Origin: Escherichia coli
GTDB taxonomy: Bacteria > Pseudomonadota > Gammaproteobacteria > Enterobacterales > Enterobacteriaceae
DNA: 64,000 bases
Direction: 5' to 3' (one strand)
Assembly: GCF_050320075.1 (NCBI RefSeq)
Contig: NZ_CP190018.1
Each line of letters starts with the position of its first letter. The stretch's first letter is position 1. The notes under the pieces were generated by a model. That model ran no database searches. It was not told the DNA's origin and saw only the letters and a list, made by a program, of their open reading frames with translations. The position numbers and the translations under genes were made by a program. Shown here one piece after another: positions 25,531 through 35,763 of this stretch.

Positions 25531-25635
<105 letters not shown>

Positions 25636-29838: not shown

Positions 29839-30602
29839 GTCAGCCATTATTATCTGTTAACGGCCTGATGATGCGCTTCGGCGGCCTGCTGGCGGTGAAC
29901 AACGTCAATCTTGAACTGTACCCGCAGGAGATCGTCTCGTTAATCGGCCCTAACGGTGCCGGAAAAACCACGGTCTTCAACTGCCTGACCGGATTCTACA
30001 AACCTACCGGCGGCACCATTTTACTGCGCGATCAGCATCTGGAAGGTTTACCGGGGCAGCAAATCGCCCGCATGGGCGTGGTGCGCACCTTCCAGCATGT
30101 GCGTCTGTTCCGTGAAATGACGGTGATTGAAAACCTGCTGGTGGCACAGCATCAGCAACTGAAAACCGGGCTGTTCTCCGGCCTGTTGAAAACACCCTCT
30201 TTCCGTCGCGCCCAGAGTGAAGCACTCGACCGCGCCGCCACCTGGCTTGAGCGTATTGGTTTGCTGGAACACGCCAACCGCCAGGCGAGCAACCTGGCCT
30301 ATGGCGACCAGCGTCGTCTGGAGATCGCCCGCTGCATGGTGACGCAGCCGGAGATTTTAATGCTCGACGAACCGGCAGCAGGTCTTAACCCAAAAGAGAC
30401 GAAAGAGCTGGATGAGCTGATTGCCGAACTGCGTAACCATCACAACACCACTATCTTGTTGATTGAACACGATATGAAGCTGGTGATGGGGATTTCAGAC
30501 AGAATTTACGTGGTCAACCAGGGGACGCCGCTGGCAAACGGTACGCCGGAGCAGATCCGTAATAACCCGGACGTGATCCGTGCCTATTTAGGTGAGGCAT
30601 AA
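29835..30602 (+). CDS. livG: Branched-chain amino acid ABC ATPase LivG
   Basis: 255 aa; Walker [10 protein letters not shown]. Confidence 0.9.
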
Positions 30603-30603
30603 G

Positions 30604-31317
30604 ATGGAAAAAGTCATGTTGTCCTTTGACAAAGTCAGCGCCCACTACGGCAAAATCCAGGCGCTGCATGAGGTGAGCCTGCATATCAATCAGGGCGAGA
30701 TTGTCACCCTCATTGGCGCGAACGGCGCGGGGAAAACCACCTTGCTCGGCACGTTATGCGGCGACCCACGCGCCACCAGCGGGCGAATTGTGTTTGATGA
30801 TAAAGACATTACCGACTGGCAGACGGCGAAAATCATGCGCGAAGCGGTGGCGATTGTCCCGGAAGGGCGTCGCGTTTTCTCGCGGATGACGGTGGAAGAG
30901 AACCTGGCGATGGGCGGCTTTTTTGCCGAACGCGACCAGTTCCAGGAGCGCATAAAGTGGGTGTATGAACTGTTTCCACGTCTGCATGAGCGCCGTGTTC
31001 AGCGGGCAGGCACCATGTCCGGCGGTGAGCAGCAGATGCTGGCGATTGGTCGCGCGCTGATGAGCAACCCGCGTTTGTTGTTACTTGATGAGCCATCGCT
31101 CGGTCTTGCGCCGATTATCATCCAGCAAATTTTCGACACCATCGAACAACTGCGCGAGCAGGGGATGACTATCTTCCTCGTCGAGCAGAACGCCAACCAG
31201 GCGCTGAAGCTCGCTGATCGCGGCTACGTGCTGGAAAACGGCCATGTTGTGCTCTCCGATACTGGTAATGCGCTGCTGGCGAACGAAGCAGTGAGAAGTG
31301 CGTATTTAGGCGGGTAA
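30604..31317 (+). CDS. livF: Branched-chain amino acid ABC ATPase LivF
   Basis: Start at MEKVMLSFDKV (237 aa); Walker A GANGAGKTT. Confidence 0.9.
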   Translation: MEKVMLSFDKVSAHYGKIQALHEVSLHINQGEIVTLIGANGAGKTTLLGTLCGDPRATSGRIVFDDKDITDWQTAKIMREAVAIVPEGRRVFSRMTVEENLAMGGFFAERDQFQERIKWVYELFPRLHERRVQRAGTMSGGEQQMLAIGRALMSNPRLLLLDEPSLGLAPIIIQQIFDTIEQLREQGMTIFLVEQNANQALKLADRGYVLENGHVVLSDTGNALLANEAVRSAYLGG

Positions 31318-31435
31318 ATTATCGATAACCCGGCAGCTAAGTTCTGCCGGGTTATTCGTCCGTATACAGACTTGTTTCAACTGACCAGGAGGATTAAAAC
31401 CAGACCACTTATTTGCCACGGAAAGGTTCCCTCCC

Positions 31436-32182
31436 ATGCATTATGCCGTTGTTGTCATGCTTGAACTGCTTTGCTGTATTCACGCTTACCGTACCGGACA
31501 AGAGCGGTACTGGATTTTTATCATTTTCTGTTTTCCGGTGATTGGCTGCGTGGCGTATTTCGTCATAGTGATGCTGCCTGAAACGGGCGCTGACCGTCAC
31601 GGGCATACTTTGCTGATGCGCCTGCAGGACAAACTCAACCCTGAGCGCCACCTGCGCAAATTAACCGAAGAACTGGCGATTGCCGAGACCAATCAAAACC
31701 ATTATGCGTTGGCTAATGAACTGGCGCGTCTGGGGCGTTATCACGAAGCTGTTCCCCATTATCAGCAGGCGTTAAGCGGGATATTCGCCCATGAAGCGGC
31801 AATGATGCTAAGCCTGGCGCAGGCACAGTTTGCTATTCAGGAGTTCGCCGCCTGTCAGCAGACGCTGGAAGATGTGATGCGTTATAACCCTGATTTTCAG
31901 TCGGCAGACGGGCATTTGTTATTTGCCAGAACGTTAGCCGCACAAGAAAAATACGCTGATGCGGAAAGCGAGTTTGAAGTATTGATTTCTTATTACCCCG
32001 GCCCGCAGGCGCGTATTTACTATGCGGAAATGTTGGCGAAAATGAGTCGGTTACGTGAAGCCAACGAGCAGTATGTTGCCGTGGTTGATACGGCTAAACG
32101 CTCAAGACCTCATTATAGAAAACACCACCGGGAATGGATTAAGACCGCCAATGAGCGGCTGAAGCAGAGTGTGGTGCAATGA
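31436..32182 (+). CDS. Hypothetical membrane-anchored protein: N-terminal two-TM hairpin (PLDc_N-like FPVIGCVAYF motif) plus helical TPR-like repeat domain
   Basis: 248-aa ORF with coherent protein-like composition between livF and ugpB; not in the K-12 gene order as I recall it. Start codon uncertain (weak RBS). Confidence 0.5.
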   Translation: MHYAVVVMLELLCCIHAYRTGQERYWIFIIFCFPVIGCVAYFVIVMLPETGADRHGHTLLMRLQDKLNPERHLRKLTEELAIAETNQNHYALANELARLGRYHEAVPHYQQALSGIFAHEAAMMLSLAQAQFAIQEFAACQQTLEDVMRYNPDFQSADGHLLFARTLAAQEKYADAESEFEVLISYYPGPQARIYYAEMLAKMSRLREANEQYVAVVDTAKRSRPHYRKHHREWIKTANERLKQSVVQ

Positions 32183-32403
32183 AAATCTTCTTTGCCGTTA
32201 GACCAGTGTCGCGGCAATCTTTTGTTAAAATTGAAAAATGTAGCTCTCATCGGGCAGCAAAACTGGACGCAGAATTTGCTGCCATTTTTGCTCTTCATGG
32301 TAAGGAGTTCTGGCGATTAGCTGGCCGTTAATCGCCTCTTTTCAGTGCATTCTCGGGATATCCGTGCCCCATCTCCCATTTTCCCTCACCCGTACCGTCA
32401 CCG

Positions 32404-32425
32404 CCTTGTCATCTTTCTGACACCT
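32404..32425 (+). promoter_or_regulatory. Pho box (PhoB binding site) in ugpB promoter
   Basis: cttgtcatctttctgacacc resembles the CTGTCAT-N4-CTGTCAC pho box; a further pho-box-like repeat near 32461-32483; ugp is a known Pho regulon operon. Confidence 0.6.
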
Positions 32426-32541
32426 TACTATCTTACAAATGTAACAAAAAAGTTATTTTTCTGTAATTCGAGCATGTCATGTTACCCCGCGAGCATAAAA
32501 CGCGTGAATTCGCGCATTCGGTACAACAAGAGAGATAAACG

Positions 32542-33858
32542 ATGAAACCGTTACATTATACAGCTTCAGCACTGGCGCTCGGACTGGCGTTAATGGGGAA
32601 TGCACAGGCAGTGACGACCATTCCGTTCTGGCATTCTATGGAAGGGGAACTGGGTAAAGAGGTGGATTCTCTGGCCCAACGTTTTAACGCCGAAAACCCG
32701 GATTACAAAATTGTACCGACCTATAAAGGCAACTACGAACAGAATTTAAGCGCGGGGATTGCCGCATTTCGTACCGGCAACGCGCCTGCTATTTTGCAGG
32801 TTTATGAAGTTGGCACCGCCACCATGATGGCGTCGAAAGCCATTAAACCGGTATATGACGTGTTTAAAGAGGCGGGGATTCAGTTCGATGAGTCGCAGTT
32901 TGTGCCGACGGTTTCAGGCTACTACTCCGACAGCAAAACCGGCCACTTACTCTCCCAGCCGTTCAACAGCTCGACTCCCGTTCTCTATTACAACAAAGAC
33001 GCCTTCAAGAAAGCCGGTTTAGACCCGGAACAGCCGCCGAAAACCTGGCAGGATCTGGCGGACTATGCCGCAAAACTGAAAGCCTCCGGTATGAAGTGCG
33101 GCTACGCCAGCGGCTGGCAGGGCTGGATCCAACTGGAAAACTTTAGCGCCTGGAACGGTCTGCCGTTTGCCAGCAAAAACAACGGCTTTGACGGCACAGA
33201 CGCGGTGCTGGAGTTCAACAAGCCGGAGCAGGTGAAACACATCGCTATGCTCGAAGAGATGAACAAGAAGGGCGATTTCAGCTACGTCGGGCGTAAGGAT
33301 GAATCCACTGAGAAGTTCTATAACGGTGATTGCGCGATGACCACCGCCTCTTCCGGTTCTCTCGCCAACATTCGCGAGTACGCCAAATTTAACTACGGCG
33401 TAGGCATGATGCCTTACGACGCCGATGCGAAAGATGCGCCACAAAACGCCATTATCGGCGGAGCCAGCTTGTGGGTAATGCAGGGTAAAGATAAAGAAAC
33501 TTATACGGGTGTGGCGAAGTTCCTCGACTTCCTCGCGAAGCCAGAAAACGCTGCCGAGTGGCATCAGAAAACTGGTTATCTGCCAATCACCAAAGCGGCG
33601 TATGACCTGACCCGTGAGCAGGGTTTTTATGAGAAAAACCCAGGGGCGGATACCGCGACGCGTCAGATGCTGAATAAGCCGCCGTTACCGTTCACCAAAG
33701 GGCTGCGTCTGGGCAACATGCCGCAGATCCGCGTGATTGTGGATGAAGAGCTGGAGAGCGTGTGGACCGGTAAGAAGACACCACAGCAGGCGCTGGATAC
33801 CGCCGTTGAGCGTGGGAACCAGTTACTGCGCCGCTTTGAGCAGTCTACGAAGTCTTAA
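32542..33858 (+). CDS. ugpB: sn-Glycerol-3-phosphate periplasmic binding protein UgpB
   Basis: 438 aa with signal peptide [23 protein letters not shown]. Confidence 0.95.
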
Positions 33859-33860
33859 TT

Positions 33861-34015
33861 CTCTTACCCTCACCCTAACCCTCTCCCAAAGGGAGAGGGG
33901 ACCGATCGGCGTGGTATCCAGGTGCCGTGTCGGTTTGCAACTTCGCTCGGTGGGAAAGTATGCACCGCCTTTCTCCCTCGCCCCTTTGGGGAGAGGGCCG
34001 GGGTGAGGGGAACAC
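33861..34015. repeat. GC-rich palindromic intergenic repeat pair (ccctcaccctaaccctctccc ... gggagagggccggggtgagggg)
   Basis: Inverted copies flanking about 90 bp between ugpB and ugpA; same family as 15300-15355. Confidence 0.6.
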
Positions 34016-34033
34016 AACACGAAGAGTTTAACT

Positions 34034-34921
34034 ATGTCATCATCCCGTCCGGTGTTCCGCTCGCGCTGGCTGCCCTATTTGCTGGTCGCGCCGCAGCTCA
34101 TTATCACCGTTATCTTTTTTATCTGGCCTGCGGGCGAAGCGTTGTGGTACTCGCTGCAAAGCGTCGATCCGTTTGGTTTCTCCAGCCAGTTTGTCGGCCT
34201 GGATAACTTCGTCGCGCTGTTTCATGACAGCTACTATCTCGACTCCTTCTGGACGACGATAAAATTCAGCACCTTTGTCACCGTCAGCGGTTTGCTGGTG
34301 TCGCTGTTCTTTGCGGCGCTGGTGGAGTACATCGTGCGCGGCAGCCGTTTCTATCAAACCTTAATGCTGCTGCCTTACGCCGTGGCACCCGCCGTTGCCG
34401 CCGTATTGTGGATCTTCCTGTTTAACCCTGGTCGCGGGCTGATCACCCATTTTCTCGCTGAGTTCGGCTACGACTGGAACCACGCGCAAAACAGCGGTCA
34501 GGCGATGTTTCTGGTGGTGTTTGCCTCGGTGTGGAAGCAAATTAGCTACAACTTTCTGTTCTTCTATGCCGCGCTGCAATCCATTCCCCGTTCGTTTATC
34601 GAAGCCGCAGCCATCGACGGTGCAGGCCCGATTCGCCGCTTCTTTAAGATTGCGCTGCCGCTTATCGCTCCGGTGAGTTTCTTCCTGCTGGTGGTGAACC
34701 TGGTGTACGCCTTCTTCGACACCTTCCCGGTGATCGACGCCGCCACGTCCGGCGGGCCGGTTCAGGCCACCACGACGCTGATTTATAAGATTTACCGCGA
34801 AGGCTTTACCGGACTGGATCTGGCTTCGTCTGCCGCGCAGTCGGTGGTGTTGATGTTCCTCGTCATCGTGCTGACGGTGGTGCAGTTCCGCTATGTTGAA
34901 AGCAAGGTGCGTTACCAATGA
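34034..34921 (+). CDS. ugpA: G3P ABC permease UgpA
   Basis: 295-aa membrane protein. Confidence 0.9.
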
Positions 34922-35763
34922 TTGAGAACCGTCCGTGGCTGACAATATTCAGCCATACCATGCTGATCCTCGGGATCGCGGTGATCCTCTTCCCGCTGTA
35001 CGTGGCGTTTGTCGCGGCGACGCTGGATAAACAGGCCGTCTACGCCGCGCCGATGACGCTAATCCCCGGCACACATCTGCTGGAAAACATCCACAACATC
35101 TGGGTGAACGGGGTAGGCACGAATAGTGCGCCTTTCTGGCGGATGTTGCTTAACAGCTTTGTGATGGCGTTCAGCATTACGCTCGGCAAAATTACCGTCT
35201 CGATGCTTTCGGCATTTGCCATTGTCTGGTTTCGTTTTCCGCTACGTAACCTCTTCTTCTGGATGATTTTTATCACTCTGATGTTGCCGGTTGAAGTGCG
35301 TATTTTCCCGACGGTGGAAGTGATCGCCAATCTGAAAATGCTCGACAGCTACGCCGGTTTAACGCTGCCGCTGATGGCCTCGGCGACCGCCACGTTTCTT
35401 TTCCGCCAGTTCTTTATGACGCTGCCGGATGAGCTGGTGGAAGCGGCGCGGATCGACGGTGCGTCACCAATGCGCTTCTTTTGCGACATCGTTTTTCCGC
35501 TCTCCAAAACTAATCTGGCGGCGCTGTTTGTGATCACCTTTATCTACGGCTGGAACCAGTATTTGTGGCCGTTGTTGATTATTACCGATGTGGATCTCGG
35601 CACCACCGTGGCAGGGATTAAAGGGATGATCGCCACTGGCGAAGGCACCACGGAATGGAACTCGGTGATGGCGGCGATGTTGTTAACGCTGATCCCTCCG
35701 GTGGTGATTGTTTTAGTGATGCAGCGTGCCTTTGTGCGCGGCCTGGTCGATAGTGAGAAATAA
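34918..35763 (+). CDS. ugpE: G3P ABC permease UgpE
   Basis: 281-aa membrane protein, 4-bp overlap. Confidence 0.9.

Follow-up and report, generated by a model that had tools for sequence, protein, structure and literature searches.

A chromosomal gene between livF and ugpB that is absent from Escherichia coli K-12 and encodes a putative membrane-tethered tetratricopeptide repeat protein

A 64,000-nucleotide stretch of Escherichia coli DNA (contig NZ_CP190018.1 of RefSeq assembly GCF_050320075.1; hereafter, the window) contains a 248-aa open reading frame (ORF) between the genes livF and ugpB. This ORF is a real, intact gene. We consider it probable that it is functional and has been inherited vertically on the chromosome, and that its product is a tetratricopeptide repeat (TPR) adaptor tethered to the inner membrane and functionally unrelated to liv or ugp, a role suggested by the sequence and the modeled architecture of the protein. 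The ORF extends from ATG to TGA at positions 31436..32182 of the + strand. With livF ending at 31317 and ugpB starting at 32542, the spacer in the window is 1224 bp long. The preliminary description of this DNA had placed a 248-aa ORF in a livF-ugpB region of approximately 1.2 kb, and its coordinates are correct. It had also described a K-12 spacer of about 0.4 kb without a gene, in agreement with the genome of K-12 MG1655, in which ugpB (start 3592325) and livF (end 3592724) are separated by 398 bp with no annotated feature. The corresponding spacer in the BL21-derived strain C43(DE3) is 396 bp.

The coding sequence (28.8 kDa product) is supported by the ORF listing, RefSeq annotation, the existence of homologues, and comparison with the copy in O157:H7 EDL933, from which the nonsynonymous divergence (dN) is 0. 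Therefore, the window protein is inferred to be identical to WP_000558842.1, the EDL933 entry. Direct reading of the sequence revealed a Shine-Dalgarno-like GGAAAGG at 31420..31426 (+), 9 nt upstream of the ATG, and the start codon at 31436 is supported because the alignment of family members begins at residue 1. The gene had been suspected of being under-annotated; however, in the genomes examined, EDL933 among them, it carries a RefSeq annotation under the names "tetratricopeptide repeat protein" or "hypothetical protein" (for example, WP_000558828.1 in another strain). RefSeq and UniProt already list it, and O157:H7 annotations have included it for a long time. Pairwise dN/dS ratios against four diverged Escherichia alleles range from 0.07 to 0.21, at synonymous divergences (dS) of 0.10-0.37, which indicates that the gene is under purifying selection.

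The protein belongs to a large family. A profile search that covered 1.84 billion cluster representatives (50% identity clusters) returned 677 clusters at E≤1e-30 and 2056 clusters at E≤1e-10. Among the best 150 of the 677 clusters, nearly all sequences were 240-255 aa long (approximately 245 aa) and matched end to end. In species genomes and the AlphaFold database (AFDB), the hosts of homologues include Pseudomonas, Bradyrhizobium, Rhodopseudomonas, Xenorhabdus, Gilliamella, the Xanthomonadales genera Luteimonas, Pseudoxanthomonas, Rhodanobacter and Xanthomonas, and many metagenome-assembled genomes (MAGs). When the ORF was checked for annotation in K-12 and for lack of conservation, either of which would have spoken against the preliminary description, K-12 proved to have no such gene and the homologues proved to be full-length in many Proteobacteria.

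Within E. coli, the gene is present in a minority of genomes. Megablast matched the flanks of the interval in 5425 of 5426 complete E. coli genomes and the full interval in only 659. When only the gene served as the query in a more sensitive search, the same 659 genomes (~12%) were recovered, with 660 copies, all of which are chromosomal and at a single locus, with none on E. coli plasmids. The same locus is occupied in related species. The gene occupies the livF-ugpB interval, with unchanged orientation, in three genomes of Citrobacter freundii (75% protein identity), in Citrobacter sp. NCU1 and a Pseudocitrobacter MAG (~68-69%), in Escherichia sp. E1V33 and E. whittamii (95-96%), and in E. 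albertii (93-95%), where it is split into two frames near codon 185. In the copy from Escherichia sp. MOD1-EC7003 (95%), livF is found upstream and the contig stops before ugpB. A 94%-identity cluster has E. fergusonii among its source names, which is a cluster label only. The gene looks ancestral at livF-ugpB in Escherichia and Citrobacter, and it looks to have been lost in most E. coli strains, including K-12. Because one locus is occupied across three genera, ancestral presence followed by loss is much more parsimonious than insertion. The proposal that this is a strain-variable accessory gene therefore stands with respect to its variability (659 of 5426 genomes), but not with respect to accessory insertion.

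The two types of spacer are homologous only in their last 183 bp (32359-32541), as determined by alignment and blastn. This segment (32359..32541, +) comprises the conserved ugpB promoter and leader, lies outside the variable module, and shares 98.4% identity with the BL21/K-12-type spacer and 84% identity with that of C. freundii; hence, the gene was correctly described as being directly upstream of the ugpB promoter. The remaining 1041 bp (31318..32358, +), which contain the gene and its flanking hairpins, are unrelated to the approximately 213 bp of the K-12-type spacer. In blastn comparisons, no gene remnants, which would be expected from a simple deletion, were found in the K-12 spacer outside the ugpB promoter part. 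The K-12-type spacer contains two elements, GCCTGATGCG...CTTATCAGGCCTAC and TAGGCCGGATAAGGCG..., which we take to be repetitive extragenic palindromic (REP) elements. One further copy of the TAGGCCGGATAAGGCG-type motif is present in the window, at 25551-25566. In most E. coli strains, the loss would thus have occurred when a short spacer with REP elements replaced the segment. The gene-bearing segment is not bracketed by direct or inverted repeats that would suggest a mobile element. The gene is dispensable, being absent from 88% of complete E. coli genomes, and two natural disruptions also point to dispensability: the insertion of an IS4-like element, ISVsa5, in the otherwise 100% identical gene copy of strain Br_112_kylling (NZ_CP182371.1), and, in the type strain of E. 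albertii (NBRC 107761), the frameshift near codon 185, which is a natural knock-out.

The livF-ugpB spacer is clearly an unstable, rearrangement-prone site. In C. freundii, two ORFs (93 and 135 aa) without Pfam matches and a Phd/YefM-Doc(Fic) toxin-antitoxin pair are located between the TPR gene and ugpB; they mark the spacer as an integration hotspot. PADLOC gave no match to the 93- and 135-aa Citrobacter ORFs. The distance from livF to the TPR gene is approximately 525 bp in E. whittamii and E. albertii, compared with 118 bp in the window. In E. whittamii, a 96-aa hydrophobic ORF lies upstream of the TPR gene, and the gap between the gene and ugpB is just 232 bp. E. coli ETEC1731 carries a deletion that extends from shortly after livF into ggt and has removed the entire ugp operon. 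The alleles also vary, and those of 106 genomes are just 90-95% identical in nucleotide sequence. E. coli Z1323HEC0399 and O145 RM8843-C1 have a 249-aa allele with one additional Ala codon. Its divergence from the window (overall dS 0.18) is strong in the 5' half, and the 3' halves are nearly identical. This pattern suggests either a mosaic produced by recombination or an old lineage of alleles.

The N-terminal region (residues 1-50; 31436..31585, +) forms a predicted two-helix hydrophobic hairpin of the PLDc_N/ClsA type, as judged from hydropathy, Pfam, profile comparison and conservation. Hydrophobic segments are located at approximately residues 3-17 and 25-47. Pfam PLDc_N matched residues 26-44, which contain the FPVIGCVAYF motif, with an E-value of 6.9e-4, and it was detected in 7 of 31 relatives at ≤1e-3 and in 16 of 31 at ≤0.1. 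A profile comparison with hhalign paired ERYWIFIIFCFPVIGCVAYFVIVML with the second helix of E. coli ClsA, whose motif was thereby placed on residues 23-47 of the window protein (E=1.1e-3). The hhalign probability was just 20.6%, the stretch being short, and the single-sequence PLDc_N scores are modest. In this pairing, Trp26, Pro34, Gly37 and Tyr41 of the window protein correspond to Trp40, Pro48, Gly51 and Tyr55 of ClsA, and each of the four is conserved in at least 93% of 138 family sequences with a median identity of 31% to the query. When Ala, Leu and Gly were set aside as the residue types expected at structural TPR positions, the positions conserved in at least 90% of these sequences were mostly those of the hairpin (His16 at the end of helix 1, Trp26, Pro34, Gly37, Tyr41 and Pro48); the remainder were Pro69, a Glu at the position of Gln191 of the query, and Trp234. 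The hairpin can be assigned to PLDc_N (PF13396) on the basis of the W-x7-PxxG-x3-Y pattern in its second helix, and the case for this putative membership lies in the pattern of the whole family.

The hairpin is followed by a TPR domain, a class defined by at least three tandem helix-turn-helix repeats of ~34 residues each. Pfam matches were obtained for TPR_19 (2.5e-6), TPR_1/TPR_2 (~1e-4) and TPR_16, and TPR_19 was detected at ≤1e-3 in 29 of 31 family members. An AlphaFold2 model based on the 31-sequence alignment is all-helical, with a mean predicted local distance difference test score (pLDDT) of 87 and a predicted template modeling score (pTM) of 0.69. The modeled hairpin helices span residues 2-20 and 23-50, the second being interrupted only at residue 33, directly before Pro34, and they are connected through a linker of low confidence (approximately residues 50-70) to four TPR helix pairs at residues 86-98/102-112, 121-133/137-150, 157-169/173-186 and 190-202/206-222 (pLDDT ~90-97). 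The repeats (residues 86-222; 31691..32101, +) are also supported by Pfam, Foldseek and the family alignment, in which the motifs SADGHLL[FY]AR and YYPGP are conserved; closer relatives share SADGHLL[FY]AR and YYPGPEA. Basic C-terminal helices, RSRPHYRKHHREWIKTANERLKQ, with the conserved Trp234 (residues 223-248; 32102..32179, +) are evident from the alignment, conservation and the model, in which they reach residue 247. Hence, the two-helix hydrophobic hairpin with a PLDc_N-like motif that the preliminary description had recognized is borne out by hydropathy, Pfam and the pairing with the ClsA profile, and its TPR-like helical domain by the Pfam matches, the four modeled pairs and Foldseek.

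The PDB searches with Foldseek and hidden Markov models (HMMs) returned only generic TPR proteins, namely, consensus TPRs, MamA, OGT, PA4667 and YbgF. Relatives in AFDB carry the name "TPR protein" or "Cardiolipin synthase N-terminal domain-containing protein". No curated NCBIfam cutoff was reached by the protein, which gave sub-threshold TPR matches only. Three known families were considered and rejected. The cardiolipin synthase/phospholipase D (PLD) superfamily, whose members have two HKD (HxKxxxxD) catalytic motifs in a globular domain of ~400 aa, was rejected because the protein has no HxK(x)4D motif and reaches 11.6 of the 290 bits required for TIGR04265, over residues 22-46 only. LapB/YciM was rejected because there was no NCBIfam LapB match at E≤1, only four TPRs in 248 aa, and no CxxC pair. 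CpoB/YbgF (TIGR02795) was rejected because the match scored 31.6 bits against a cutoff of 90.1 bits and the N-terminus is a hairpin rather than a cleavable signal peptide.

A mechanism can be proposed from this architecture. The hairpin would anchor the protein in the cytoplasmic membrane and might position it relative to particular lipids. A flexible linker would connect the hairpin to the four TPR repeats, which are followed by the basic C-terminal helix, and the groove of the TPR superhelix would bind a protein or peptide partner at the membrane, so that the protein could act as an adaptor or scaffold.

We place the TPR domain on the cytoplasmic face of the membrane with modest confidence, on the basis of an analogy with ClsA in normal cells. 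The globular domain of ClsA has been mapped to the cytoplasm in such cells (Sawasato, Dowhan, Bogdanov; PMC11698083). Its second helix has been discussed as membrane-dipping and bent at PxxG, and the positive linker after this helix is a cytoplasmic retention signal (PMC11698083). In 84 members of the present family, the N-terminus contains no Lys or Arg, the 7-residue loop between the helices contains a mean of 2.15, and the 15 residues after helix 2 contain a mean of 3.0 Lys/Arg and 1.0 Asp/Glu, a net charge of +2. Both flanks of helix 2 are therefore positive family-wide, as is the case in ClsA. Cysteine counts in the soluble part agree with this placement: of the 71 members with at least one cysteine there, 43 have an odd number, which argues against a disulfide-bonded periplasmic domain. 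The native hairpin of ClsA is also required for the flip of its domain to the periplasm upon phosphatidylethanolamine (PE) depletion or osmotic down-shock (PMC11698083). By the same analogy, the hairpin in this family might be a lipid-responsive, dual-topology switch that presents the TPR domain on either face of the membrane, or it might pair with ClsA, although we regard this as improbable. Dual topology would especially fit the enteric proteins because their linker is nearly neutral, and the absence of the gene from K-12 would explain how such a family escaped study.

Several observations weigh against the cytoplasmic, native adaptor that we prefer, and they are considered here together with the explanations that they favor. 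The term "TPR adaptor" is itself a generic reading of the fold, and the orientation of the domain may be the opposite of that proposed. The loop would then be cytoplasmic and helix 2 would be a signal-anchor, with the TPR domain exported as a periplasmic adaptor like CpoB/YbgF, NlpI or LbcA. With approximately two Lys/Arg residues in the loop and none at the N-terminus, the classical rule, which disregards long domains, predicts an N-out/C-out protein. Furthermore, the linker of the E. coli and Citrobacter proteins, PETGADRHGHTLLMR, has a net charge of approximately 0, with Glu49 and Asp53 within 7 residues of the helix, and two extra Glu residues after helix 2 are sufficient to flip the ClsA domain to the periplasm (PMC11698083). 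The best sub-threshold matches outside the generic TPR models are the periplasmic TPR proteins YbgF/CpoB and PA4667; YbgF is the best NCBIfam match, and the sequence matches in the PDB include both YbgF and PA4667. We take PA4667 to be the lipoprotein LbcA. However, the score of the YbgF match is far under its cutoff and reflects generic TPR similarity, the linker is positive across the family (net +2), which is the retention signal in ClsA, and the soluble-part cysteine counts are mostly odd. A periplasmic TPR domain thus seems somewhat unlikely, and the cytoplasmic face is retained as the working orientation.

The other objections concern the origin and the reality of the gene. Its G+C content at third codon positions (GC3) is 54%, below those of livF (70%) and ugpB (65%), which would fit a foreign origin and would equally fit low expression; its product shares 75% identity with that of C. 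freundii, compared with 94.5% for LivF. The low GC3 and high divergence are probably those of a fast-evolving, weakly expressed gene. Horizontal acquisition in the lineage of the window, with the short K-12 spacer as the ancestral state, could also account for the low GC3, as well as for the presence of the gene in just 12% of complete E. coli genomes, the variability of the spacer (such as the C. freundii Phd/Doc pair and other arrangements) and the nucleotide differences of up to 5-10% between alleles, which are high for E. coli. However, the position and orientation of the gene are alike in six species of three genera, it was never found on E. coli plasmids or in phage records, no repeats or integrase occur at its borders, and the K-12 spacer consists largely of the presumed REP elements, which are secondary invaders; we therefore regard acquisition as decidedly improbable. 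It is also very unlikely that the protein acts with its neighbors, for example by regulating ugp expression or by regulating or assembling the Liv or Ugp ATP-binding cassette (ABC) transporters. The gene does lie on the same strand between the two operons, directly 5' of the ugpB promoter, and the hairpin after livF has no good U-tract, so that read-through from liv is possible. Nevertheless, homologues outside Enterobacteriaceae are never beside liv or ugp and have no recurring neighbor, both transporters operate without the gene in K-12 and in 88% of complete E. coli genomes, and the change of spacer type leaves the ugpB promoter region unaltered. A scan of the 118 bp upstream of the ORF detected no sigma-70-like site. 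Searches of the literature for a livF-ugpB tetratricopeptide gene, O157 locus tags, the PLDc_N-TPR combination and PF13396 yielded nothing on the protein, and no experiment, expression datum or interaction partner was found there for family members. (The O157 locus tag ECs4299 proved to be that of ugpB.) Together with the dispensability of the gene in most strains and its natural knock-outs, the lack of a recognized promoter would suit a non-functional remnant or a chance frame. This explanation is refuted within the limits of sequence analysis, and its probability is virtually negligible, given dN/dS values of 0.07-0.21, the full length and intact annotation of the listed copies, a deep and conserved family, and a confident fold prediction. 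A vertically inherited gene for a membrane-tethered TPR protein therefore remains the preferred interpretation.

The gene neighborhoods of the family also speak against a link to liv or ugp. For 80 homologous loci, taken from contigs of one genome per species, ORFs were called and then clustered all-against-all, and no neighbor gene family recurred past genus-level synteny. The Pseudomonas and Exilibacterium loci have no neighboring gene family in common. A second large ORF cluster, found in 51 of the 80 loci, was rejected as a conserved gene because it is an antisense shadow ORF of approximately 240 aa in GC-rich genomes. The window protein had no match in PADLOC or in a collection of phage records. 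Matches on plasmids were limited to five distant relatives (30-32% identity) on records of 0.37-2.3 Mb, four of which exceed 1.5 Mb. The possibility that the gene is cargo of a mobile element or an anti-phage defense gene was rejected, as PADLOC, the phage records and the gene borders gave no evidence for it and the E. coli copies are chromosomal and at one locus. The gene is a stand-alone chromosomal unit, and its enteric position between liv and ugp is incidental.

The gene is flanked by two stem-loops. A perfect 12-bp stem-loop, whose inverted repeat is 100% complementary, is located 8 nt downstream of the livF stop codon (31325..31355, +) and has a folding energy of −21.6 kcal/mol (z = −5.6). 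It is probably the terminator of the liv operon, though its U-tract, UUAUUCGU, is poor; the consensus terminator scan made no call for it because the T-run is absent. Downstream of the gene, the same scan detected a terminator-like hairpin with a 10-bp stem followed by TCTTTTCAGT (32312..32346, +; −19.5 kcal/mol, z = −3.5). An Rfam search over 30000-35000 gave nothing relevant and no family in the livF-ugpB interval. A 50-aa ORF at 32179..32331 overlaps the stop codon of the TPR gene through an ATGA sequence. It is probably not a gene because E. whittamii and Escherichia sp. E1V33 lack part of the segment, and the ORFs that Citrobacter has there are visibly unrelated. Farther downstream, the ugpB-ugpA spacer (33859-34033) is 175 bp in the window, compared with 97 bp in EDL933 and K-12. 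It contains an element of approximately 150 bp with G+C-rich inverted arms at about 33866-33901 and 33975-34010, and EDL933 has a REP-like sequence at the matching place. Therefore, this operon region harbors a second repeat insertion that is polymorphic.

In this study, a gene that is missing from the K-12 reference was found to be probably ancestral to the genus, and it serves as an example of such genes. The analysis adds the putative ancestry of the gene at the locus and the loss in K-12, the indication of purifying selection, and the recognition of a large PLDc_N-TPR family without conserved neighbors. This family is compact and proteobacterial, combines a ClsA-type hairpin with a TPR domain, and has no characterized member that we could find. 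Should the hairpin prove to sense lipids or to switch topology, this protein, which is small, non-essential and deletable in O157:H7, would offer a convenient model for such a module apart from cardiolipin synthesis. Otherwise, it would be another accessory membrane protein, useful in practice only as a presence/absence marker and as a reminder that the livF-ugpB spacer is prone to rearrangement.

Compared with known systems, the protein resembles different proteins in its different parts. Among natural proteins, Foldseek gave MamA (PDB 3vty and 4xi0) as the best compact match in structure, with target-normalized TM-scores of 0.74-0.79 and root mean square deviations of 3.2-3.9 Å over approximately 165 columns; however, MamA shares only 16-18% identity, has no membrane hairpin and belongs to another biological context, so the resemblance is one of fold only. 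CpoB/YbgF (TIGR02795; PDB 2xev) matches residues 87-157 (E=2e-7), and the family profile matches 2xev at 7.7e-6, whereas the window protein has neither a signal peptide nor an N-terminal coiled coil, and the similarity is that of generic TPRs. LapB (YciM) of E. coli has an N-terminal membrane anchor followed by TPRs that recruit partners at the inner membrane. The anchor-plus-TPR architecture is alike, and one AFDB relative has been automatically named "Lipopolysaccharide assembly protein B". However, LapB has a single-helix anchor, approximately nine TPRs and a rubredoxin-like CxxC zinc site, while the window protein has a hairpin, four TPRs and no zinc site. The hairpin itself is closest to that of ClsA (PF13396), with which it shares two hydrophobic helices, a short loop rich in Lys and Arg, the W-x7-P-x2-G-x3-Y pattern in helix 2 and, at the family level, a positive linker after this helix. 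In place of the PLD catalytic domain of ClsA, the hairpin of the window protein is followed by a TPR domain.

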